From: Candidatus Auribacterota bacterium
GTDB lineage: Bacteria > Auribacterota > Ancaeobacteria > Ancaeobacterales > Ancaeobacteraceae
Direction of reading: 5' to 3'
Length of the DNA stretch: 64,000 nt
NCBI GenBank assembly: GCA_022711655.1
Contig: JAKLEM010000004.1
Span: 8,182 to 72,181 of the forward strand
Shown here: positions 4,741 through 63,050 of the stretch, piece after piece
Layout of the letters: every line of letters starts with the position of its first letter
Position numbering within the stretch: position 1 is the first letter of the stretch
Notes under the pieces: model-generated
Told to the model about the DNA's origin: nothing
Seen by the model: the letters and a program-made list of their open reading frames with translations, nothing else
Databases searched by the model: none
Program-made: the position numbers and the translations under genes

Positions 4741-6135
4741 ATGGACTTCATACCTCATACCAAAGCCGATACCGATTCGATGCTGAAGGCGGTCGGCGCC
4801 GATACGGTCGAGAAGCTTGTCGCGGACATACCCGCGGCGCTCCGTCACGGGCTCCACGGGATCCCGCGGCCGCTTTCCGAGTGCGAGCTTCTTGCGGACC
4901 TGCGAGAGCGCGCGTCGCGCAACGCCGACAGCGACGGCTTTACCTCGTACCTCGGCGCCGGCGCCTACGAGCACTATATCCCTTCCGCGCTCTCCCACAT
5001 CGTCGGGCGGAGCGAGTTCTACACCGCCTACACGCCGTACCAGCCGGAGGCAAGCCAGGGAACTTTGCAGGCGGTCTACGAATACCAGAGCGTCATGTGC
5101 GGCCTGACCGCGATGGATGTCACGAACGCGTCGCTCTATGACGGCGGGTCGGCGGTCGCCGAGGCGGCGCTTATGGCGCTGGCCGCGCGCGAGGGGCGAA
5201 GCGAGGTCATCGTCTCCGAGCTTGTCCATCCCGAATACCGGCAGGTGCTGAGGACCTATCTCGCGCAGCGCAAAGTGACCATCCGCGAGATCCCGCATGT
5301 CGACGGCGCGACCGACCTCAAGACTCTCAAGGGGCGTGTCAGCGGCAACACCGCCGCCGTCATCATCCAGAGCCCGAATTTCTTCGGGTCGCTTGAGGAT
5401 ATGCGCGCATGCGAAGAGATCATCCATAAGGCGGGAGCCCTGTTCGTCGCCGTCGTCAACCCCCTGTCGCTCGGGGTGATCGCGCCGCCGGGGGAATACA
5501 ATGCGGATATCGCGGTAGGCGAAGGCCAGCCGCTGGGCAACCCGGTCGCGTTCGGCGGGCCGTATCTCGGCTTTATAGCCGTCAAGGACGAGCTGAAGCG
5601 GCGGATGCCGGGGCGCATGGTCGGCGTCACGCTTGACCGCAACGGCAAAAAAGGGTTCGTCCTCACCCTGCAGGCGCGCGAGCAGCACATACGCCGGGAG
5701 AAGGCGACGTCCAATATCTGCAGCAACGAGGCGCTGTGCGCGCTCTCCGCGTGCGTTTACGTCTCCCTGCTCGGCAAGCAGGGGATGGTCGAGCTCGCGA
5801 AGCTCAATATAGCCCGCAGCCACTACCTTGCCTCGAAGATCGCTGCGGTCGAGGGCATCAGAGTTGCGTTCAAGGCGCCGTTCTTCAATGAGTTCGTCGT
5901 CGAGTCCGACGTGCCGCTGAAAAAGATCAACCGGTATCTCCTCAGGAACAAGGTGATCGCCGGCCTCGATATTTCGCGCTTCTATAAAGGGTGCAAGAAC
6001 ATGATGCTCGTGTGCGCCACCGAGACGAAGTCGCCGGACGATCTCGACAGGTACGCAGAGCTACTGGCCGAAGTCGCCGCGGGCGCGGCCAAGGTTAAGG
6101 AACCGGTCTGCGAAGAGACGGTGAAGGGCGTTTAA
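4741..6135 (+). CDS. gcvPA: Glycine dehydrogenase (decarboxylating) subunit 1
   Basis: 464 aa; FIPHT...SYLGAGAYEHYIP...TAYTPYQPEASQGTLQ is typical of split P-protein subunit 1. Confidence 0.95.
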   Translation: MDFIPHTKADTDSMLKAVGADTVEKLVADIPAALRHGLHGIPRPLSECELLADLRERASRNADSDGFTSYLGAGAYEHYIPSALSHIVGRSEFYTAYTPYQPEASQGTLQAVYEYQSVMCGLTAMDVTNASLYDGGSAVAEAALMALAAREGRSEVIVSELVHPEYRQVLRTYLAQRKVTIREIPHVDGATDLKTLKGRVSGNTAAVIIQSPNFFGSLEDMRACEEIIHKAGALFVAVVNPLSLGVIAPPGEYNADIAVGEGQPLGNPVAFGGPYLGFIAVKDELKRRMPGRMVGVTLDRNGKKGFVLTLQAREQHIRREKATSNICSNEALCALSACVYVSLLGKQGMVELAKLNIARSHYLASKIAAVEGIRVAFKAPFFNEFVVESDVPLKKINRYLLRNKVIAGLDISRFYKGCKNMMLVCATETKSPDDLDRYAELLAEVAAGAAKVKEPVCEETVKGV

Positions 6136-6167
6136 CGGGTAGGGCGCAGGCGTGCCTGTACCCTGCG
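6136..6167. repeat. 32-nt GC-rich palindromic REP-like element, copy 1
   Basis: CGGGTAGGGCGCAGGCGTGCCTGTACCCTGCG lies between the gcvPA stop and the gcvPB start. It is a near-identical reverse complement of 10039-10070. Confidence 0.7.
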
Positions 6168-7648: not shown

Positions 7649-7914
7649 GAAACGGCGGATAACGGCCCGTCTGCGGCAACCCTGCGAATCGAAGATTCGC
7701 GGAGCAGCCCCCGCGCCTGGGGGCGTTGCCCGCCATCGCTCCCTTTGTGCGGCGTACTTACCAGTACGCCTCCCCAGGCGGGGACTGGTCCGCGAATCTC
7801 TAAAGATTCGCCGGCTTGTCCCCATACGGGGACCGGTCCGCAAATCTTACGATTCGCCGGCTTGTCCGCGGTCGCTGGCGGGCGCCTTGCACCCGGGCCG
7901 TTCTTCGCCGTTTC
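7649..7914. repeat. Composite palindromic intergenic element (family 2), expanded copy
   Basis: Outer inverted arms GAAACGGCGGATAACGGCCCG / CGGGCCGTTCTTCGCCGTTTC enclose three GCGAATC-N-GATTCGC hairpin modules. A shorter homolog lies at 62868-62976. Confidence 0.75.
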
Positions 7915-7940
7915 AAATAGTAACCAAAGGATATGTTCGG

Positions 7941-10038: not shown

Positions 10039-10070
10039 CGCAGGGTACAGGCATGCCTGTGCCCTACCCC
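10039..10070. repeat. 32-nt GC-rich palindromic REP-like element, copy 2
   Basis: CGCAGGGTACAGGCATGCCTGTGCCCTACCCC overlaps the stop codon of the GT4 gene. It is the reverse complement of the 6136-6167 copy, with two C/T differences within the palindrome and one at the element end. Confidence 0.7.
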
Positions 10071-11170
10071 TTCGCAACGACATTCGTGTACAATTCTAAC
10101 GTCTTAGAGATTGTTGCATCCAGCGGAAAACGGGCGGCGGCAGCTGCGCGCGCGCGCCTGCCGAATTCGGCGCGAAGATCGGGGTTGCCGGCGAATCGCA
10201 GGATCGCTGTTGCCAGTTCGCTCGGCGAACGCGGCGGTACCAGGATGCCGGTCGAGTTGTTCTCGACCACTTCGGATATGCCGCCGATGTCTGTCGCTAC
10301 CACCGCTTTTTCCATCATCATCGCTTCGAGGACCGCCAGGCCGAACCCTTCCATGTGCGAGGGCATCGCGAAGATGTCGATAACCGAGAGCGGCCTGCGG
10401 GTGTCGTCGACGCGGTCGACATAGCGGACCGAATCGTCGACGCCGAGCTTTTTCGCGAGCTGTACCAGGCCGGGCTTTATGTCTCCTTCGCCGACGATCA
10501 GGAGCTCGAGGCGGTTGTCGCTCGCGAGCGCCGCGGCGAATGCGGTGATCAGATCTTCATGCCCTTTGACCGTCGAGAGGCGAGCGATGATGCCGACGAC
10601 GGTAGAGTCGCCGCGCAGTCCGTATTCGCGGCGCAGGGCCTGCGGATCGATCCCGGCGGGCCGTTCGGAGAAACGCGCGGTGTCGACGCCGTTGTGGATC
10701 AGCGAGATCTTCTTTTCGGGGATGCCGAGGTCACGCAGGAGATAGTCCTTTACGGGCGTGCTGATCGCGATGACCCGTTCGCCGATGCAGGGGAGGATGC
10801 GCCGCAGCGTCCGCTTCCTGAAGAAGCCGTGATAGGTCGTTACGTGGGGTACGTGTGTCAGCCGCGAGGCGGCCTGCGCGACGACCTGCGTAACGCGGCT
10901 GTTCGAGTGGATGATGTCAATTCTCTGTTCCTTGAGCAGCGTGCAGAGCTGTGGCATGGCGCGGAACGCCTTCGGGCCGAACTCCTGTTTCGTCCTGATA
11001 GCGAGCGGCAATAGCGTGACGCCGCTTCCCCTGAACCGCTCCTCCATGCTGCCGCCGCCCGATGCGACGAATACAGAATGCCCTTCTTTGATGTATCCCC
11101 TGGAGAGCGTCAGGATATACCAGGTGATGCCGCCGATATCGAGGTGGGTGGAGAGGAAGAGGATGTTCAT
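10064..11170 (-). CDS. Glycosyltransferase family 4 (GT-B, retaining type)
   Basis: 368 aa; N-terminus MNILFLSTHLDIGGITWY; C-terminal EGFGLAVLEAMMMEKAVVATDIGGISEVV motif typical of GT4. Confidence 0.85.
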   Translation of the reverse strand: MNILFLSTHLDIGGITWYILTLSRGYIKEGHSVFVASGGGSMEERFRGSGVTLLPLAIRTKQEFGPKAFRAMPQLCTLLKEQRIDIIHSNSRVTQVVAQAASRLTHVPHVTTYHGFFRKRTLRRILPCIGERVIAISTPVKDYLLRDLGIPEKKISLIHNGVDTARFSERPAGIDPQALRREYGLRGDSTVVGIIARLSTVKGHEDLITAFAAALASDNRLELLIVGEGDIKPGLVQLAKKLGVDDSVRYVDRVDDTRRPLSVIDIFAMPSHMEGFGLAVLEAMMMEKAVVATDIGGISEVVENNSTGILVPPRSPSELATAILRFAGNPDLRAEFGRRARAAAAARFPLDATISKTLELYTNVVAKG

Positions 11171-11218: not shown

Positions 11219-11376
11219 GCAGCGGGGCCTGACATAGCAGCACTCTTTCAGCATCGCTCGGGTCCCTCCGGCGGGGTCCCTCGCTCGGCGAGAATTTCTG
11301 CGCGCCGACGTTCGTCGGCGACCAAGCCGCAGAAATTCTCAACGTGCTGAAAGAATGCTGCCATGTCACCCACTGC
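11219..11376. repeat. 158-nt nested-hairpin element (family 1), copy A
   Basis: Terminal inverted arms GCAGCGGG / CCCACTGC, a long outer stem, and an inner 13-bp stem GAGAATTTCTGCG / CGCAGAAATTCTC. Inverted homolog at 15555-15713. Confidence 0.85.
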
Positions 11377-11414: not shown

Positions 11415-11491
11415 TGGTGGGCGGTACAAGGCTCGAACTTGTGACCCCATGCTTGTAAGGCATGTGCTCTAGCCAACTGAGCTAACCGCCC
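11415..11491 (-). tRNA. tRNA-Val(TAC): tRNA-Val, anticodon TAC, CCA encoded
   Basis: Reverse complement: GGGCGGTTAGCTCAGTTGGCTAGAGCACATGCCTTACAAGCATGGGGTCACAAGTTCGAGCCTTGTACCGCCCACCA. It has a 7-bp acceptor stem, anticodon loop CTTACAA and a GTTCGAG T-loop. Confidence 0.95.
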
Positions 11492-11521
11492 GTATATGAT
11501 CGTGTGTCAAAAAACAGAGTT

Positions 11522-11549
11522 ACTATAAAGCAAAAAAGGCGTTAGTCAA
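11522..11549 (-). promoter_or_regulatory. Sigma70-like promoter candidate for tRNA-Val
   Basis: On the minus strand: TTGACT, 16 nt, TATAGT, ending about 30 nt upstream of the mature tRNA 5-prime end. The -35 overlaps the stop of the upstream GT2 gene. Confidence 0.45.
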
Positions 11550-14408: not shown

Positions 14409-14462
14409 ATGTGCTATCGTTTGTCAATTAATGTGTCAGGACCCGCTGCAGATTTGAGGAGC

Positions 14463-15533
14463 ATGCAGAACATACTGATCATCAACCCTTTCGGCATCGG
14501 CGATGTCCTTTTCACGACGCCGCTGGTGCGGGCGCTGAAAGAGGGGATCAAACCCGCGCCGCGCATCACATTCGTCTGCAACGCGCGGACCTATCCGATC
14601 ATCGCGGCCAATCCCTGTATCGACCGCGTGATCGTCTTTGATCGCGGCGATTACCGGATGCTCTGGCGGGCGGATAAGGCCGCCTGCGTGAAAAATCTCC
14701 TGGCGTTCGTAGCAGACATAATTAAGTCCGGGTTCGATTGTGTTTTTGACATCTCGCTGTCCCGTCAATTCTCGTTCTTGTCGGCCATAGCGCGCGTACC
14801 CGTCAGGATCGGGTTTGATTACAAGGGGAGAGGGACGTTCCTTACGCACCGTATGGTTTTGGAAGGTTTCTCCGGGAAGCCGATCCCTGACTATTATCTC
14901 TCTCTCTCCCGGCTGGCCGGCGTCGAGCCGGCGGCCGGCGGGCTGCTCGAATTTCCGCTGACGCAGGGATCGGCACGCGAGGCGGATGCTCTGTGGGCGT
15001 CGCATGGCATTACCGGGAACGATCTGCTGGTCGGCATCGTCCCCGGCGGAGGCGACAGCTGGGGGAGCGACGCCGGCCTCAAACGCTGGGCTCCGGAGAA
15101 GTTCGCCGAAGCCGCCGGCCGGCTTGTCGCAGAGCGCCGTGCTATACCGGTGATCTTCGGCAGCAATGGCGAGGCGGAGCTGTGCGACTCGGTGCAACAG
15201 ATGATCGCCGGGAAAAGCGTCGTTGCGACGGGCCTGTCTCTCGGCGGTTTCGCGGCCGCAATGAAGCGCTGTCGTGTTGTGATATGCAACGACGGCGGGC
15301 CGCTGCATATAGCCGTCAGTCAGGGAGTTAAAACGGTTTCTATCTTCGGTCCGGTCGATCCGCTCGTCTATGGCCCGTATCCGGGGACCGATCGTCACGC
15401 CGTGATCACGGCGGCGGTCCCGTGCCGACCCTGTTACCGTAACTTCCGCTATGAAAAATGCGGCAACCGCCGTTGCCTCGGGGAGATATCGCCGGACGCC
15501 GTCTGCGATGCCGCAATCCGGTTGCTTCATTGA
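14463..15533 (+). CDS. Glycosyltransferase family 9 (heptosyltransferase-like), paralog 1
   Basis: MQNILIINPFGIGDVLFTTPLVRALKE; NDGGPLHIAVSQGVKTVSIFGPVDP; C-terminal CRPCYRNFRYEKCGNRRC. Confidence 0.85.
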   Translation: MQNILIINPFGIGDVLFTTPLVRALKEGIKPAPRITFVCNARTYPIIAANPCIDRVIVFDRGDYRMLWRADKAACVKNLLAFVADIIKSGFDCVFDISLSRQFSFLSAIARVPVRIGFDYKGRGTFLTHRMVLEGFSGKPIPDYYLSLSRLAGVEPAAGGLLEFPLTQGSAREADALWASHGITGNDLLVGIVPGGGDSWGSDAGLKRWAPEKFAEAAGRLVAERRAIPVIFGSNGEAELCDSVQQMIAGKSVVATGLSLGGFAAAMKRCRVVICNDGGPLHIAVSQGVKTVSIFGPVDPLVYGPYPGTDRHAVITAAVPCRPCYRNFRYEKCGNRRCLGEISPDAVCDAAIRLLH

Positions 15534-15554
15534 ATCTCTCAGTATGCAACTTGT

Positions 15555-15713
15555 GCAGCGGGTGACAGGGCGTCATTTTTTCAGCACGTTGAGAATTTCT
15601 GCGGCTTGGTCGCCGGCAGAATGCCGGCGCGCAGAAATTCTCGCCGAGCGAGGGTCCCCGCAGGAGGGACCCGAGCGGTGCTGAAAAAGTGGCGTCCTGT
15701 CAGGCCCCGCTGC
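15555..15713. repeat. 159-nt nested-hairpin element (family 1), copy B, inverted relative to copy A
   Basis: Lies between two plus-strand GT9 genes. Its reverse complement aligns end to end with 11219-11376. The outer stem pairs fully (Watson-Crick plus G-U) on the plus strand. Confidence 0.85.
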
Positions 15714-15780
15714 AATGAGTTATTTATTCAAAAATCCCCCTGGTTTGATATAATCCTACCCTTTGGGAAACTGTGACTCT

Positions 15781-17985
15781 ATGATGACAAAAGACATCAA
15801 AAGCATCATGATCGTGAAGCTCAGTTCGATCGGGGACGTTGTCCACGCCCTTCCGATCGCCCGGGCCCTCCGGGACCGCTATCCGCACGCCCATATCACC
15901 TGGGTCGTCAAGCGGAGCTGTAAGGACGTCGTCGAGGGGAACCCCCATATCGACGAGGTGATGATATACGAGCGCGAGCGGTGGGGCGACCCGCGCAACC
16001 TCAGATCGACCGTGCAGGAGATCTGCGCTTTCGCCCGCGAGATACGTTCGCGCCATTTCGACGTGGTCGTTGACCTGCAGGGGCTTTTCTACACCGGCAT
16101 CATCACCTATTTCTCCGGCTGCAAATGGCGGATCGGCTTCAGGAACGCCCGCGAATTCGCCCACATCTTCTACAATCACCGGGTGGCGGTCCCGACGATG
16201 GACATGCACGCCATCGACCGCTATTTCCTGCTTGCCGATGCGGTCGATGCGCATGTGCGGAAGGCCGATTTTACCATCGCCGTGTCGCGGGAGGACAAGG
16301 AGTTCGTCTCCGCCTTCCTGCGTGACGCCGGCGTGTCCGGCGACGGGAAACCGCTTATCGCGATCAACCCGTCGGCGCGCTGGATAACCAAACAGTGGCA
16401 GATGGAGAAGTTCGCCGAGCTTTCAGACGCTCTGGCCCGGCATATGAACGCGACCATCATCCTGATCGGGAGCAACGCCGACCGCGAGCTCGTCGCGCGC
16501 CTTATCGAGAAGATGCACACCGTCCCGGTCAACGCGACGGGCAAGACCTCTCTGAAGCAGCTCGTCGAGCTTCTCGGCCGCGCCGACCTCCTGATCAGCA
16601 ACGATACCGGCCCGATGCATATCGCCTGCGCTGTCGGCACGCCGGTGCTCGGCCTCTTCGGGCCGACCGACCCCCGCCGCACCGGCCCGTTCGGGTTCGG
16701 CCACGCGGTGATCAGAAAGGACATCTTCTGCAGCCCCTGCTTTAAAAAGAGATGCCGGGACTTGATCTGCATGGACCTGCTGACGATCCAGGACGTGATC
16801 TACGCGATAAAGGTGAATCTGGAGAGCGGCAGCTTCGGGAAGGTCAATCTCTCGAAGGTCGGCCGCATTATGCGCAACCTCGACATCGCGGGCCTTCCCC
16901 CGGCGCCGGGGATCGACGTCCTGGTGTTGAGCGACGGCAAGCCCGGGCATGTCAACCAGTCTCTCGGGATGGTCAAGCACGTCGTCGGCCTGAAATACCG
17001 CGTTTCGCGCATCAAGTATAAATCGGAGCTGCACCGCGGCCTTGCGTGGATTGCCGGCGTGTGCGGCATGGGGAAGGTCGGCTTCCTCAGGTGGGCGCTG
17101 AAGCCGGAAAGTTACCGGTCGGTCATGGAGTCGGTGCCGAAAGTAGTCCTGTCGGCCGGCATCTCGGTGGCGGCCATTAACCTCATACTCGGCCGGATCT
17201 TCAAGGCGAAGACGGTGGTGAGCATGAAGCCGGGGCCGATCAGGCTGACCCGCTTCGATCTTGCGATCGTCCCGATGCACGACGAGCCGCCGAAGCTCAA
17301 GACGGTCATCCAGACGCTCGGCGCGCCGAACATCATAGACGACGAGCTCCTGAACGGCGAGCGGGACAAGCTGCTGAAAGATATCCGGTTCACCAAGAAA
17401 GTGAAGATCGGGATACTGATCGGCGGCGAGACGCCTGATTATTTCATTTCAAAAGAAACCATGAACCATCTGATCGAGAATATTAAGAATATGTCGGAAC
17501 GCCTGGACGCCGAAGTCCTCATCGCGACGTCGCGGCGGACGCCCAAACCGCTTGAACGGCTGCTTGTGCACAACTTTAAAAAGAACGAGCGCTGCAAGCT
17601 GTTGTCGATCGCGAGCCACACGAAGGATAACCCGATCCCCGGCATCCTTGGCTTGTGCACGATCATCGTGGTGACGGAGGAAAGCATTTCGATGGTGTCC
17701 GAGGCGGCCAGTTCCGGAAAGTATGTCTTTGTCGTCCGGATCGACCACAAGGATAACCGGCGCTTAAAGCAGGAGCGGACGATCGATATCCTCGCCCAGC
17801 GAGGTTACATCATCAAATCGGACATGTCGCAGTTGTGCGAAACGGTCGCGCAGTTCTGGCCGCCGAAAAGCCCGCCCCGTGTGCTGAACGACACCGAGAC
17901 CGCTTCGGAAGCGCTGATGAAGCTGCTTCGCACGGCGCAGGCGCAGAAAAAGGAGCTCGTGTGCGCCTGCTGCGTGAATGCGTGA
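15781..17985 (+). CDS. Fusion protein: N-terminal GT9 domain plus C-terminal ELM1-family (DUF1022-like) GT-B domain
   Basis: GT9 part: IMIVKLSSIGDVVHALPIARAL, NDTGPMHIACAVGTPVLGLFGPTDP, CSPCFKKRCRDLIC. From about nt 16900: VLVLSDGKPGHVNQSLGM, FDLAIVPMHD, IATSRRTP, VTEESISMVSEAASSGK, resembling the bacterial ELM1 family. Confidence 0.8.
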   Translation: MMTKDIKSIMIVKLSSIGDVVHALPIARALRDRYPHAHITWVVKRSCKDVVEGNPHIDEVMIYERERWGDPRNLRSTVQEICAFAREIRSRHFDVVVDLQGLFYTGIITYFSGCKWRIGFRNAREFAHIFYNHRVAVPTMDMHAIDRYFLLADAVDAHVRKADFTIAVSREDKEFVSAFLRDAGVSGDGKPLIAINPSARWITKQWQMEKFAELSDALARHMNATIILIGSNADRELVARLIEKMHTVPVNATGKTSLKQLVELLGRADLLISNDTGPMHIACAVGTPVLGLFGPTDPRRTGPFGFGHAVIRKDIFCSPCFKKRCRDLICMDLLTIQDVIYAIKVNLESGSFGKVNLSKVGRIMRNLDIAGLPPAPGIDVLVLSDGKPGHVNQSLGMVKHVVGLKYRVSRIKYKSELHRGLAWIAGVCGMGKVGFLRWALKPESYRSVMESVPKVVLSAGISVAAINLILGRIFKAKTVVSMKPGPIRLTRFDLAIVPMHDEPPKLKTVIQTLGAPNIIDDELLNGERDKLLKDIRFTKKVKIGILIGGETPDYFISKETMNHLIENIKNMSERLDAEVLIATSRRTPKPLERLLVHNFKKNERCKLLSIASHTKDNPIPGILGLCTIIVVTEESISMVSEAASSGKYVFVVRIDHKDNRRLKQERTIDILAQRGYIIKSDMSQLCETVAQFWPPKSPPRVLNDTETASEALMKLLRTAQAQKKELVCACCVNA

Positions 17986-18032: not shown

Positions 18033-20120
18033 ATGAACATATTGCAGATGGTCCCTGAACTGGAGTGCGGCGGCGTCGAGACCGGCACGGTCGACATCGC
18101 GCTGAAGCTCAAAGAGTCCGGCAATAACTCATTTGTCGTGACCAGCGGCGGGTCGCTGGTCGCAAAACTGCGCGACGCGGGCGTCGGCTGCTACCTCCTG
18201 CCTGTCCACAAGAAATCGCTCCTGTCGATGGTCCGCTGTATCATGAAGGTCCGGCGCATCATCCTGCTGGAGCGCATCGAGGTCGTGCATGCGCGCAGCA
18301 GGGTTCCCGCCTGGATCGGCTGGTTTGCGGTAAAAGGGACGCCCGCCCATTTTGTCACCACGGCCCACGGGCACTACAAAACGCACTCGGCCAGCGCGGT
18401 CATGGGGTTCGGAGAGCGGGTGATCGTCCCGAGTTACGCGATACTCGATCACATGGAGAAGGGCTTTGGCGTGGAGAAGGAGCGGCTCCGCCTGATACCG
18501 CGCGGCGTCGACGTCAAGCGTTTTCGGCAGAAAGAGCCCGAGCTCTCGGGCCTTAAGGATTCGTTCAATATCGCGGTGATCGGGAGACTGACGCCGATCA
18601 AGGGGCACGTGTACGTGATCAGGGCGATGGAACAGGTCCTGCGCGAGTGCCCGCACGCCAAGCTGTTCATCGTCGGCGACGCGCACCCGTCGAAATTCCG
18701 CTACAAAGAAGAGCTGCTGAAACTGGTTGAGACGCTCGGCCTGAACGACAAGGTCGTCTTTACCGGGGCGTGCCACGACGTCCCCAAGATATTGGAGAGC
18801 GTCGATCTTGTCGTCCTTGCGACGACGGTCCCCGAGGCGTTCGGCCGGGTGATCATCGAGGCCCAGGCTTCCTGCATACCGGTGATCGGGACGCGCCTGG
18901 GCGGCGTTCTGGATATCATCGATGACGGCGTGACCGGCCTGCTCGTGGAGCCGAAAGATGTCCAGGGCCTGACCGCGGCGATCATCAGGATGATCAAGGA
19001 AGGGGCATTGCGGGAGCTTCTCGTCGACAACGCGTATAAGAAAGTCAGCACGGAGTATACCCTGCAGAAGATGTTCAGTGCGACGCTGCAGGTGTACGAG
19101 GAGGTCGTGCTGACAAAAAAGATACTGATCGTCAAGCTGAGCGCGTTGGGCGATATCGTCCTGATCAGTCCGTCGATACGCGCATTGAAGAACAAGTACC
19201 GTTACGCATCGCTGTCAGTCTTGACGTCAAGCCGTTATAAATCGCTGTTTGCCAATTGCCCTGACATCGACACCATCTTCACGTACGATAAGGAAAAGAA
19301 CGTCGGGGCGATCGTATCGGCGGTGCGCGGGATCCGGCGCGGGCGATACGATATCGCGATCGATTTCCAGAACACCATCAGGTCCCATCTGATCCTGTTC
19401 CTGAGCGGTATCAGGAAGACGGTCGGGTATAACAGGCACGGCGGGCATTTCCTGCTCAGCGACAGCATTACCGCCGACAGCAAGCCGATCGACCCCGTCA
19501 GCCATCAGTTCAAGCTGCTCAGCCTCCTTGGCATTACCCTGGAGGACCGCCGGATCGAGTTCTGGTCTAACGACGACGACGCTCGCATGATCGATAATTT
19601 CCTCAAACGTCACGGCGTTACGAACGGCGAGACCCTTGTCGCCGTCAGCCCGGGCGGAAGTCCCCGCTGGGAGACGAAACGCTGGCCCAAGGAGCGTTTC
19701 GTCGAGCTGATACGCGAGCTCGGGGAGAAGTACCGGGCGAAAATCGTGCTGGTCGGGGGAGAGGATAACGCGGACCTTAAGGAATATTTCGGGCAGCACG
19801 CCGGCGTCCCGTATGTCGATGCTATCGGAGAAACGTCGGTCACGCAGCTTGGCGCCCTGATACGGCGCTGCAGCCTGCTTATCACCGGGGACACCGCGCC
19901 GCTCCACATCGCGGCCGGCTGCGCCGTGCCATTTGTCGCGCTGTTCGGCCCCACCGACCCCCAGCGGCACCTGCCCTCCGGGACCGGCGTTGCGATCACC
20001 AAGAACGTGTCGTGCAGTCCCTGCGGCAAGAGCGTCTGCGAGGTGTTCCTGTGCATGGACAAGATCACCGTCTCCGACGTCCTCGGCCACGCGGACGCCT
20101 TCCTGAAAAAAACGGAGTAG
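18033..20120 (+). CDS. Fusion protein: N-terminal GT4 domain plus C-terminal GT9 domain
   Basis: GT4 part: MNILQMVPELECGGVETGTVD...EAFGRVIIEAQASCIPVIGTRLGGVLDII. From about nt 19120, the GT9 part: KILIVKLSALGDIVLISPSIRALK, GDTAPLHIAAGCAVPFVALFGPTDP, CSPCGKSVCEVFLC. Confidence 0.85.
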   Translation: MNILQMVPELECGGVETGTVDIALKLKESGNNSFVVTSGGSLVAKLRDAGVGCYLLPVHKKSLLSMVRCIMKVRRIILLERIEVVHARSRVPAWIGWFAVKGTPAHFVTTAHGHYKTHSASAVMGFGERVIVPSYAILDHMEKGFGVEKERLRLIPRGVDVKRFRQKEPELSGLKDSFNIAVIGRLTPIKGHVYVIRAMEQVLRECPHAKLFIVGDAHPSKFRYKEELLKLVETLGLNDKVVFTGACHDVPKILESVDLVVLATTVPEAFGRVIIEAQASCIPVIGTRLGGVLDIIDDGVTGLLVEPKDVQGLTAAIIRMIKEGALRELLVDNAYKKVSTEYTLQKMFSATLQVYEEVVLTKKILIVKLSALGDIVLISPSIRALKNKYRYASLSVLTSSRYKSLFANCPDIDTIFTYDKEKNVGAIVSAVRGIRRGRYDIAIDFQNTIRSHLILFLSGIRKTVGYNRHGGHFLLSDSITADSKPIDPVSHQFKLLSLLGITLEDRRIEFWSNDDDARMIDNFLKRHGVTNGETLVAVSPGGSPRWETKRWPKERFVELIRELGEKYRAKIVLVGGEDNADLKEYFGQHAGVPYVDAIGETSVTQLGALIRRCSLLITGDTAPLHIAAGCAVPFVALFGPTDPQRHLPSGTGVAITKNVSCSPCGKSVCEVFLCMDKITVSDVLGHADAFLKKTE

Positions 20121-62867: not shown

Positions 62868-62976
62868 GAAATGGCGGATAACGATCCGTCTGCGGCAACC
62901 CGGCGAATCGAAGATTCGCCGGGTTGCCCGCGCTCGCTGGCCTGCGCCTTGCAGCCGAACCGTTCTTCGCCATTTC
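62868..62976. repeat. Palindromic intergenic element (family 2), minimal copy
   Basis: GAAATGGCGGATAACG...CCGGCGAATCGAAGATTCGCCGG...CGTTCTTCGCCATTTC aligns with both ends of 7649-7914. Confidence 0.75.
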
Positions 62977-63050
62977 GAAGATTACCCATCGGGTGAGCAG
63001 TTTCTTCTATGAAAAGTGATATTACCTGCCATTCTAAGAGAGAGGACTCT

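Follow-up and report, generated by a model that had tools for sequence, protein, structure and literature searches.

A previously undescribed family of small structured repeats, probably mobile, in a Candidatus Auribacterota bacterium

We have analyzed a stretch of 64,000 nucleotides (nt) from a Candidatus Auribacterota bacterium (contig JAKLEM010000004.1, assembly GCA_022711655.1), which will be called the window. It contains two inverted copies of an element of about 160 nt, copy A and copy B. These belong to a family of small dispersed repeats which had not been described before, with at least 11 copies (154–169 nt) at 11 different loci: nine in the species of the window and two single copies elsewhere. 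In every copy we find a closing stem of about 33 base pairs (bp), two hairpins and a conserved junction core, and this fold is strongly supported by covariation over the 11 members. We consider it fairly probable that they are small non-coding interspersed repeats which behave like a mobile element, either of the REPIN type or like a MITE (miniature inverted-repeat transposable element).

The two copies in the window

Both copies had been noticed by a model which only had the letters of the window and its open reading frames (the sequence-only reading). A repeat finder places them at exactly the coordinates which it gave (Table 1). According to BLASTN they are 88.75% identical over 160 columns, copy A being in the minus strand and copy B in the plus strand, and the repeat finder gives two pairs of arms (11219–11313/15619–15713 and 11316–11376/15555–15615) with 88–92% complementarity.

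When they are folded as RNA, the minimum free energy (MFE) of copy A is −102.8 kcal/mol in the minus strand and −89.9 kcal/mol in the plus strand, while copy B gives −112.1 kcal/mol in the plus strand and −96.6 kcal/mol in the minus strand. For both copies and both strands the z-scores lie between −8.8 and −11.3, and none of 200 shuffled sequences is as stable. The better fold is found in the strand named by the sequence-only reading, and all the parts which it described are present: the 8-bp terminal stem, the long stem, the perfect 13-bp stem enclosing a small hairpin and the GGGNCCC hairpin. The terminal stem, a 3-nt bulge and about 25 further pairs together form P1, which leads to a junction with two hairpins, P2 and P3. 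The bulge of copy B recurs in copy A and in three other copies (L002, L005a and L024). The P2 stem, GAGAATTTCTGCG/CGCAGAAATTCTC, is invariant in the subfamily to which copies A and B belong (subfamily 1); in other subfamilies its sequence is different and the pairing is kept. The sequence of the P3 stem covaries, both between copies and between subfamilies.

Copies A and B differ in 18 columns. Both sides have changed with pairing kept in five pairs (the long stem has four of these and the small hairpin one), and three changes are from G-C to G-U. Copy A has also lost pairing at three places: there is an A.A mismatch in its GGGACCC hairpin and a C.A where the junction is closed, and a deletion of 1 nt has removed a loop-closing pair. 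The claim that every difference is compensated is thus correct for the 24-bp stem, for which it was made, but not for the whole element. In a similar way, the non-Watson-Crick pairs in that strand are broadly G-U, as was claimed, the C.A of copy A being a small exception.

Number and distribution of copies

A copy count and a search of Rfam had been proposed together with the first description of the element. The family of at least 11 copies is the result of searches with sequence patterns and with covariance models. A pattern containing both arms of the P2 stem detects five further loci in metagenome contigs (L001 to L005). As the two samples from which they come also hold contigs identical to the window, these are probably paralogues within the same species. 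The samples are metagenomes of the anaerobic digester type; the source metagenomes are JGI 3300010429 and 3300009771, and ENA ERZ795055 and ERZ27257480. A covariance model made from seven copies (R1) detects an eighth one, L005b, at 55 nt from L005a and inverted. This copy is strongly diverged: the architecture is the same, with nearly all the stem sequence changed, and its two strands give −106.9 and −89.1 kcal/mol.

A degenerate pattern of the junction core is found at 18 loci in 185,579 species genomes, and two of them are confirmed by the covariance model. Both are single copies, one in a groundwater metagenome-assembled genome (MAG) of Omnitrophota (L020, MAG JACQXK01), the other in an unclassified MAG (L024, MAG SCPY01). 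The GC content of these genomes is 41–46%, compared with 56–59% for the element. The remaining 16 loci were discarded as chance or unrelated matches, as the covariance model has no match at the site of the pattern; among them are five Novosphingobium loci with one common match length. The eleventh copy (L039/L041) was detected with a broader covariance model made later (R2), about 1.5 kb past the right end of the window. The E-values of these searches are rough, as the calibration of the models was shortened, and 9 of the 11 sequences come from one species.

The copies of this species fall in two subfamilies which are about 55% identical. Members of subfamily 1 are 77–94% identical to each other, while the remaining members of the family are 53–59% identical to subfamily 1; L039 belongs to subfamily 2. 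The covariance models detect no other copies, whether in the window, in sister-lineage DNA (about 71 kb) or in extra DNA at the left end of the window. The two-arm pattern of the P2 stem has no match in the 185,579 species genomes or in viral contigs, single-arm 19–20-mers of this stem have none in viral contigs, and BLASTN gives no match of the element in plasmid and phage collections.

No Rfam family matches either the copies in the window or the diverged members. At the gathering score, Rfam 15 only detects two tRNAs in the window; there is no other match around copy A up to E=10, or in L005, L020 and L024 up to E=1. The element has no conserved open reading frame: on inspection, the single ATG-initiated frame of copy B is missing from copy A. 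Likenesses to hammerhead, group II domain V, k-turn, 6S, Y-RNA, bridge-RNA and omega-RNA structures were discarded: neither the junction nor the gene context agrees with any of them, and Rfam gives no support.

Covariation and the conserved junction core

The alignment of the 11 sequences, guided by the model, has 95.2% of its cells paired, compared with 80.3 ± 1.0 when the partners are shuffled. Compensatory changes are found at 25 of the 55 pairs, while shuffles give 14.4 ± 2.3 and controls with the partners slid by 1–3 columns give 6–9. The covariation score is 0.437, while shuffles give 0.155 and slid controls do not exceed 0.12. Compensatory pairs include 13 of 23 in helix 2 (P1) and 5 of 8 in helix 6 (P3). 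Covariation is also seen with RNAalifold and in a plain MAFFT alignment, which is not fitted to the structure. The opinion that this is not neutral repeat DNA, initially based on two copies, is borne out by this covariation across the family.

The sequence of the junction is kept. All members conserve the final six pairs of P1 (CAGCAC/GUGCUG), the UUGA which opens P2, the UCGYYGAGCG between the hairpins and the CG-R-UGCUG on the 3' side, so the core may be written as RNA in the form CAGCAC-R-UUGA / UCGYYGAGCG / CG-R-UGCUG. Members outside subfamily 1 also have in common two motifs in the P2 internal loop, GAGCGG(G/C)CA and AGAGCGA. The unit which is copied coincides with the unit which folds: a bulged closing stem of about 33 bp, a three-way junction core and two hairpins whose sequences drift with pairing kept.

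Strand asymmetry and orientation

One strand of the element, which we call the canonical strand (minus for copy A, plus for copy B), has the more stable fold in each of the ten full-length copies, irrespective of the direction of the neighbouring genes. The margins are 15.5, 12.9, 5.4, 11.8, 7.1, 5.8, 17.8, 13.7, 1.0 and 9.6 kcal/mol, the largest being that of L005b. In the canonical strand there are 17 pair positions with G-U and 6 with A-C (binomial p=0.017, taking the positions as independent). The covariance model gives 104–171 bits for this strand and 20–44 bits for the opposite one.

Orientation with respect to genes is less regular. Gene calls at the different loci are those of the collection and others based on GC content at third codon positions, and promoter-like sites are consensus matches only. 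At best eight copies have the orientation of their neighbours and three are antisense, which is not significant; among copies which are probably transcribed the tally is about 6 to 3. Copies A and B, together with L002, L003, L024 and L004 (for which a single neighbour is known), run in the same direction as the genes next to them. L005a and L005b, between divergent genes, each point to the nearest gene and lie upstream of promoter-like sites, of which the one for the rplC-like gene (TTGACA-16-GATAAT) is strong. They are probably in no mRNA. In the three antisense cases both neighbours run opposite to the copy: L001, which separates ogg and truB within a nusA-infB-rbfA-nrnA-ogg-truB-ribF operon, L020, between comEC and bamD-like genes, and L039.

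The strand with G-U pairs had been identified with the transcribed strand of the flanking genes. This is true for both copies in the window, but it is not a rule of the family, where 3 of 11 copies are antisense and two are upstream of promoters. As the same strand folds better regardless of the direction of the neighbours, the asymmetry belongs to the element and not to local transcription. There is nevertheless a weak hint of an influence of local transcription: when the ten copies are ranked by asymmetry, starting from the smallest, the antisense ones are first, second and fifth (one-sided rank test, p about 0.03, n=10), although the sample is small.

The position of the copies is more regular than their orientation. 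They tend to follow a stop codon by up to 30 nt (1 nt for L001, 4 nt for L024, 21 nt for copy B, 25 nt for L039, 30 nt for L020) and to come just before the promoter of the following gene, or else they occupy narrow spacers between cistrons. The neighbours are unrelated housekeeping genes: ogg/truB, ABC ATPases, nuoA, rplC, comEC/bamD, glycosyltransferases and a GlpA-like oxidoreductase.

Two of these loci deserve a separate description. In L005 (6350–6721), elements of different subfamilies are placed tail to tail, 55 nt apart, between the divergent rplC-like gene and a gene without assigned function, and the 3' end of each element faces the nearer gene. In L039, positions 1079–2781 (about 5–6 kb past the right end of the window) contain genes for a tyrosine recombinase (Phage_integrase), an excisionase-like protein (HTH_17) and an extracytoplasmic function (ECF) sigma factor. 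This recombinase group is 3.7 kb from the eleventh copy, and a link to the element is not evident.

Empty sites, flanks and termini

Three orthologous sites are empty in sister lineages, so the copies found there are insertions. These are comparisons between species, whose flanking proteins are 52–75% identical. The spacer which contains copy B, between genes for a family 9 glycosyltransferase (GT9) and a GT9-ELM1 fusion protein, has 247 nt in the species of the window, compared with 59, 42 and 93 nt in three sister lineages. These lineages have the same gene order, with GT9-ELM1 65–75% identical, and they lack copy A as well. The −10 region of the promoter-like site after copy B is conserved in their empty sites. 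At the L001 site, ogg and truB overlap by 26 nt in one sister lineage, as compared with a spacer of 181 nt bearing the element. When L034 10860–11075 is compared with L036 6840–6890, the element appears together with a changed C-terminus of ogg, whose new stop codon is 1 nt before the element. On the other side, a new 24-nt spacer with a GGGG ribosome-binding site precedes truB.

The base of P1 is made of the inverted repeats at the ends of the element, RCAGCGGGTGACA...TGTCA(GGC)CCCGCTGY. At the 5' end the first letters are GCAG, ACAG, AAAG, CCAG, ATTG or ATAG. The 9 nt before copy B, GCAACTTGT, are also found directly before L039, a copy of the other subfamily; the chance of an identical 9-mer among 45 pairs is about 2e-4. 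The 5' flanks of L005a (GCAACCATT), L001 (CAAACATTT) and L002 (TGACAATT) are similar. To judge from these flanks, the shared 9-mer may be a preferred target or else a short unpaired 5' tail of the element.

Gene context in the window

The genes which flank the two copies are those given by the sequence-only reading, tRNA-Val and GT4 in the minus strand for copy A, GT9 and GT9-ELM1 in the plus strand for copy B. Between tRNA-Val and GT9 there are two GT2 genes and a GT1-like gene, all in the minus strand (Pfam). A scan of the spacer between copy A and GT4 detects no promoter-like site. Elsewhere in the window, the V-ATPase A subunit has its nearest named relative, with 80% identity, in Candidatus Ancaeobacter aquaticus (Ca. 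Auribacterota, PVC group).

A unit of about 190 bp (11415–11549), consisting of the tRNA-Val gene and its promoter, is inverted with respect to three sister lineages (L010 1–60, L011 5850–5926 and L030 5748–5823), where tRNA-Val is divergent from GT4. The flank TCTCATTTCC has not moved. Copy A is about 27 nt from the breakpoint of this inversion.

Table 1. Coordinates in the window of the two copies, the parts of copy B and the neighbouring genes
Feature	Position	Strand	Remarks
GT4	10064–11170	−	Pfam; copy A is 5' of the gene, 48 nt from its start codon
Copy A, subfamily 1	11219–11376	−	Canonical strand is window minus; model R2, 163.6 bits
tRNA-Val	11415–11491	−	Rfam; copy A starts 38 nt 3' of the gene
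Promoter-like site of tRNA-Val	11522–11549	−	Consensus match; transcription would run into copy A
GT9	14409–15533	+	Pfam; stop codon 21 nt before the start of copy B
5' flank of copy B, GCAACTTGT	15546–15554	+	Identical 9-mer directly before L039 (subfamily 2)
Copy B, subfamily 1	15555–15713	+	Canonical strand is window plus; model R2, 171.3 bits
P1, 5' arm	15555–15587	+	33 nt, MFE structure; last 6 nt, CAGCAC, kept family-wide
Junction core segment 1, CAGCACGTTGA	15582–15592	+	Family consensus CAGCRCRTTGA
Hairpin P2	15590–15643	+	13/14-bp stem GAGAATTTCTGCG/CGCAGAAATTCTC, 7-nt asymmetric loop, apical hairpin
P2 apical hairpin, 8 bp	15611–15629	+	MFE structure
Junction core segment 2, TCGCCGAGCG	15641–15650	+	Family consensus TCGYYGAGCG
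Hairpin P3	15648–15676	+	GC-GA-GGGTCCCC...GGGACCC-GA-GC; GGGNCCC hairpin
Junction core segment 3, CGGTGCTG	15676–15683	+	Family consensus CGRTGCTG
P1, 3' arm	15678–15713	+	Contains the 3-nt bulge GGC at 15703–15705
Promoter-like site, TTCAAA-16-TGnTATAAT	15727–15754	+	Extended −10; 14 nt after copy B; for GT9-ELM1
GT9-ELM1	15781–17985	+	Pfam; downstream of copy B

A probable mobile element

Dispersed copies with sharp edges, empty sites, two subfamilies in the same species, unrelated neighbours and a sporadic occurrence across phyla all point to a repeat which is mobile, or was so until recently. Moreover, the constraint is most likely on the propagation of the element itself, since the asymmetry goes with the element and copies which are not transcribed are intact as well. 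One of the possibilities in the sequence-only reading, a MITE constrained to fold, comes close to this explanation. We suggest that the fold would be selected because the element is recognized or propagated as a folded single strand, in a strand-specific way. Its likeliest form would be single-stranded DNA, handled by a transposase acting in trans, as in IS200/IS605 and REPIN-RAYT systems (HUH/Y1 enzymes); an RNA intermediate seems less likely. Insertion would take place without target duplication, next to a sequence similar to (G)CAAC-N-TT.

As a by-product, copies in transcribed spacers would put very stable double-stranded RNA into mRNA, in either orientation. Copy A (in the spacer from tRNA-Val to GT4), copy B (downstream of GT9) and L001 (in the nusA-infB-truB operon) are examples. 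A perfect duplex of the element is long enough for RNase III. By analogy with the Correia, ERIC and bcr elements, such copies might act as RNase III or stability determinants, and any effect on mRNA would be secondary.

Several observations weigh against this explanation. The flanks of 11 copies have no consistent direct repeat at any fixed offset which might be a target-site duplication; matches of 3–4 nt are seen in three copies, at inconsistent offsets. The empty ogg|truB site does not define the insertion point at the nucleotide level, because the flanks have changed too. Four other assemblies of the same species have identical copies, with no polymorphism within the species. No transposase or autonomous parent is found among the proteins of the window which were scanned, about 150 kb of this species being readable. 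Neighbouring copies are on opposite strands (A and B, L005a and L005b), at variance with a strict lagging-strand rule of the IS608 type. The asymmetry remains, although reduced, when DNA energy parameters are used; as it is present with both sets of parameters, folding cannot tell RNA from single-stranded DNA. Finally, the conservation of a sequence core in different phyla could just as well be a sign of a functional RNA.

Other explanations

The best alternative is that the host exploits the element as a cis-acting RNA, with selection at each locus: a processing site for RNase III on the 33-bp stem, a stabilizer of 3' ends or an insulator between transcription units. We consider this possible but rather unlikely. 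It is compatible with a mobile origin, and several facts speak for it. Most copies are just after a stop codon and many are just before the promoter of the next gene. L024 and L001 must be co-transcribed with their neighbours, as the spacers are too short for a promoter. The smaller asymmetry of antisense copies is what would be expected from local selection on the RNA of the other strand. There is also a parallel in Bacillus cereus, where about half of the bcr copies are in mRNAs and one family tracks decay rate (PMC3446304). Nevertheless, even antisense copies fold better in the canonical strand, and L005a and L005b are intact where an mRNA is not expected, with L005b having the strongest asymmetry. 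The element is dispensable at these sites in sister lineages, the hairpin is not followed by a U-tract, and a plain hairpin function needs no conserved junction sequence.

More specific roles are not borne out. There is no terminator-like site at copy A or copy B in either strand (the 3' flanks are CAAGCAATC and AATGAGTTA), and an intrinsic terminator is rejected, as the hairpin has no U-tract after it. The role as terminator or attenuator which had been proposed is not borne out, since the U-tract is missing in both strands and there is no consistent association with a gene. A riboswitch or another cis-regulator of a specific gene does not agree with the unrelated neighbours, or with the location of several copies upstream of a promoter. 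An integron attC site is also rejected: on inspection, the ends have no R''/R' boxes (RYYYAAC ... GTTRRRY), and the copies are not in cassette arrays.

A variant of mobility, to which we give a low probability, is that the conserved three-way-junction core is itself active. The element might then be a mobile RNA which processes itself or recruits a protein, a bacterial counterpart of retrozyme-like elements, or it might be the folded DNA substrate of an uncharacterized recombinase, of the HUH class or another one. It would be shared horizontally among candidate phyla of the PVC (Planctomycetes, Verrucomicrobia, Chlamydiae) group, such as Auribacterota-like bacteria and Omnitrophota.

It is still less likely that the copies are a multicopy family of small RNA genes, each with its own promoter and giving a stable RNA, about 160 nt long, whose ends pair and whose junction binds a protein or is catalytic. 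Paired ends, a conserved core, internal-loop motifs (GAGCGG / AGAGCGA) and covarying stems do resemble a genuine structured RNA, the strand identity is intrinsic to the element, and its GC content is above that of the L020 and L024 genomes. On the other hand, the copies which were scanned have no promoter-like site upstream and no terminator, and several begin 1–4 nt after a stop codon within operons. A conserved cellular RNA would be widespread in its phyla, while the core is confirmed in only 2 of 185,579 species genomes, and orthologous sites are empty in sister species.

Mutation mechanisms which use a template are well established for imperfect palindromes. Template switching (quasipalindrome correction), or gene conversion between copies, might in principle produce compensatory changes in neutral palindromic DNA without any selection, and the variation in subfamily 1 is in fact clustered in a short stretch of P1, which differs in almost every copy. 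Nevertheless, we find this explanation very improbable. Templated correction yields Watson-Crick pairs, not an excess of G-U over A-C in one strand. It cannot account for three helices and a junction geometry which are kept at 53–59% identity and across phyla, or for the 3-nt bulge, the 7-nt loop and the difference in model score between strands.

Finally, there is practically no chance that copies A and B are the ends of a composite transposon or invertible segment containing the 4.2-kb tRNA-Val/GT2/GT2/GT1/GT9 block: inverted repeats of 158 bp do bracket these glycosyltransferase genes, but gene order and orientation are the same in three sister lineages without either copy, where only the tRNA-Val unit of about 190 bp is inverted, and other copies are single, in unrelated contexts. 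We have rejected it on account of this unchanged gene order.

Comparison with known elements

The family has several features of MITEs: its members are small, non-coding and dispersed in multiple copies, they have terminal inverted repeats, and they are present or absent in different species at three sites. They do not belong to the classical MITEs, as no target-site duplication is seen.

One of the closest likenesses is to bcr1 (with bcr2 and bcr3) of the B. cereus group, bcr1 being a non-coding intergenic element of about 155 bp whose distribution is not conserved between relatives. It also has a branched stem-loop fold kept by compensatory changes, it is transcribed, and it is often found in untranslated regions or operon spacers (PMC3184786; PMC3446304). 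Nevertheless, there is no sequence similarity, and bcr1 is flanked by direct repeats of 5 bp, while our element has no duplication. Moreover, bcr1 is limited to one species group, whereas the core of this element recurs in different candidate phyla. The fold is also different: in our element the three-way junction is closed and its sequence is conserved.

In REPINs, as in this family, a long hairpin unit itself replicates without a classical target duplication; compensatory changes are common in their hairpins and a strand-specific intermediate of single-stranded DNA has been proposed (PMC3116915). REP sequences are described as having a GTAG or CGTC tetranucleotide at one end of the palindrome (PMC3733652). 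Our element lacks this tag and is not a doublet of short inverted REPs, so it does not belong to REP/REPIN. Moreover, its length is greater, its interior is asymmetric (the two hairpins differ, and there is the 3-nt bulge), and no RAYT gene is found in the approximately 150 kb of DNA read from this species. REPIN-RAYT systems are described as mostly vertically inherited.

Miniature derivatives of IS200/IS605 (PATEs) are recognized as folded single-stranded DNA in a strand-specific way, and they insert without target duplication 3' of a short specific sequence. In Borrelia, isolated IS605 end hairpins show compensatory changes (PMC3184786; PMC2775950). These elements have two different subterminal hairpins and their ends are not paired together, while the ends of our element pair over about 33 bp, and no TnpA or TnpB gene is seen near it.

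Palindromic intergenic repeats of 100–170 bp are also known in Neisseria (Correia/NEMIS) and in enterobacteria (ERIC). They are co-transcribed with genes, and cleavage of their long double-stranded RNA stems by RNases alters mRNA stability (reviewed in PMC3184786). They differ from our family in their defined terminal inverted repeats, the TA target duplication (Correia), the IHF sites or promoter motifs and their restriction to particular lineages. Neither of them has the junction core.

To sum up, the element works like structured interspersed repeats of the bcr, REPIN or Correia type, but it is a new family and not a known RNA. Its unusual features are the closed three-way junction with a core conserved in sequence and the recurrence of this core in different candidate phyla.

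Other repeats and genes in the window

Two other repeats are found in the window. The first one (GGGTAGGGCRCAGGCRTGCCTGTACCCTGCG) is short, 34 nt, with two copies which are 91% identical and form a small hairpin, at 6134–6167 (plus strand) and 10039–10072 (minus strand). They are located in the gcvPA/gcvPB spacer and in the spacer between GT4 and thymidine phosphorylase, each co-oriented with the operon. Their fold is not better than that of shuffled sequences (z −0.7 and −1.1). The other repeat is also intergenic (7649–7926 and 62868–62988), in two spacers of about 230 nt; it is 83–86% identical over blocks of 66–76 nt, with internal inverted CGAATC...GATTCG units, and has no Rfam match at the gathering score.

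Two unusual fusion proteins are encoded downstream of copy B. The GT9-ELM1 protein joins a GT9 heptosyltransferase to a Mito_fiss_Elm1 domain, and only 8 full-length relatives are found in a collection of 5.8 billion proteins. It is followed by a GT4-GT9 fusion (18033–20120) and by several further GT9 paralogues.

Significance

This family adds a well-supported structured motif, absent from Rfam, from candidate phyla which have barely been studied and whose non-coding elements are little known. The covariance model and the junction pattern make a census possible. As insertions are found where the genes of an operon are closely spaced (ogg|truB, nusA-infB operon) and also amid glycosyltransferase genes for lipopolysaccharide, the family is a candidate cause of differences in expression between close lineages. 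In addition, the G-U polarity of the strands travels with the repeat and not with local transcription. This allows selection in the life cycle of the element to be separated from selection on the structure of host mRNA, a distinction which is usually left open for repeats of the bcr, ERIC and REPIN types.

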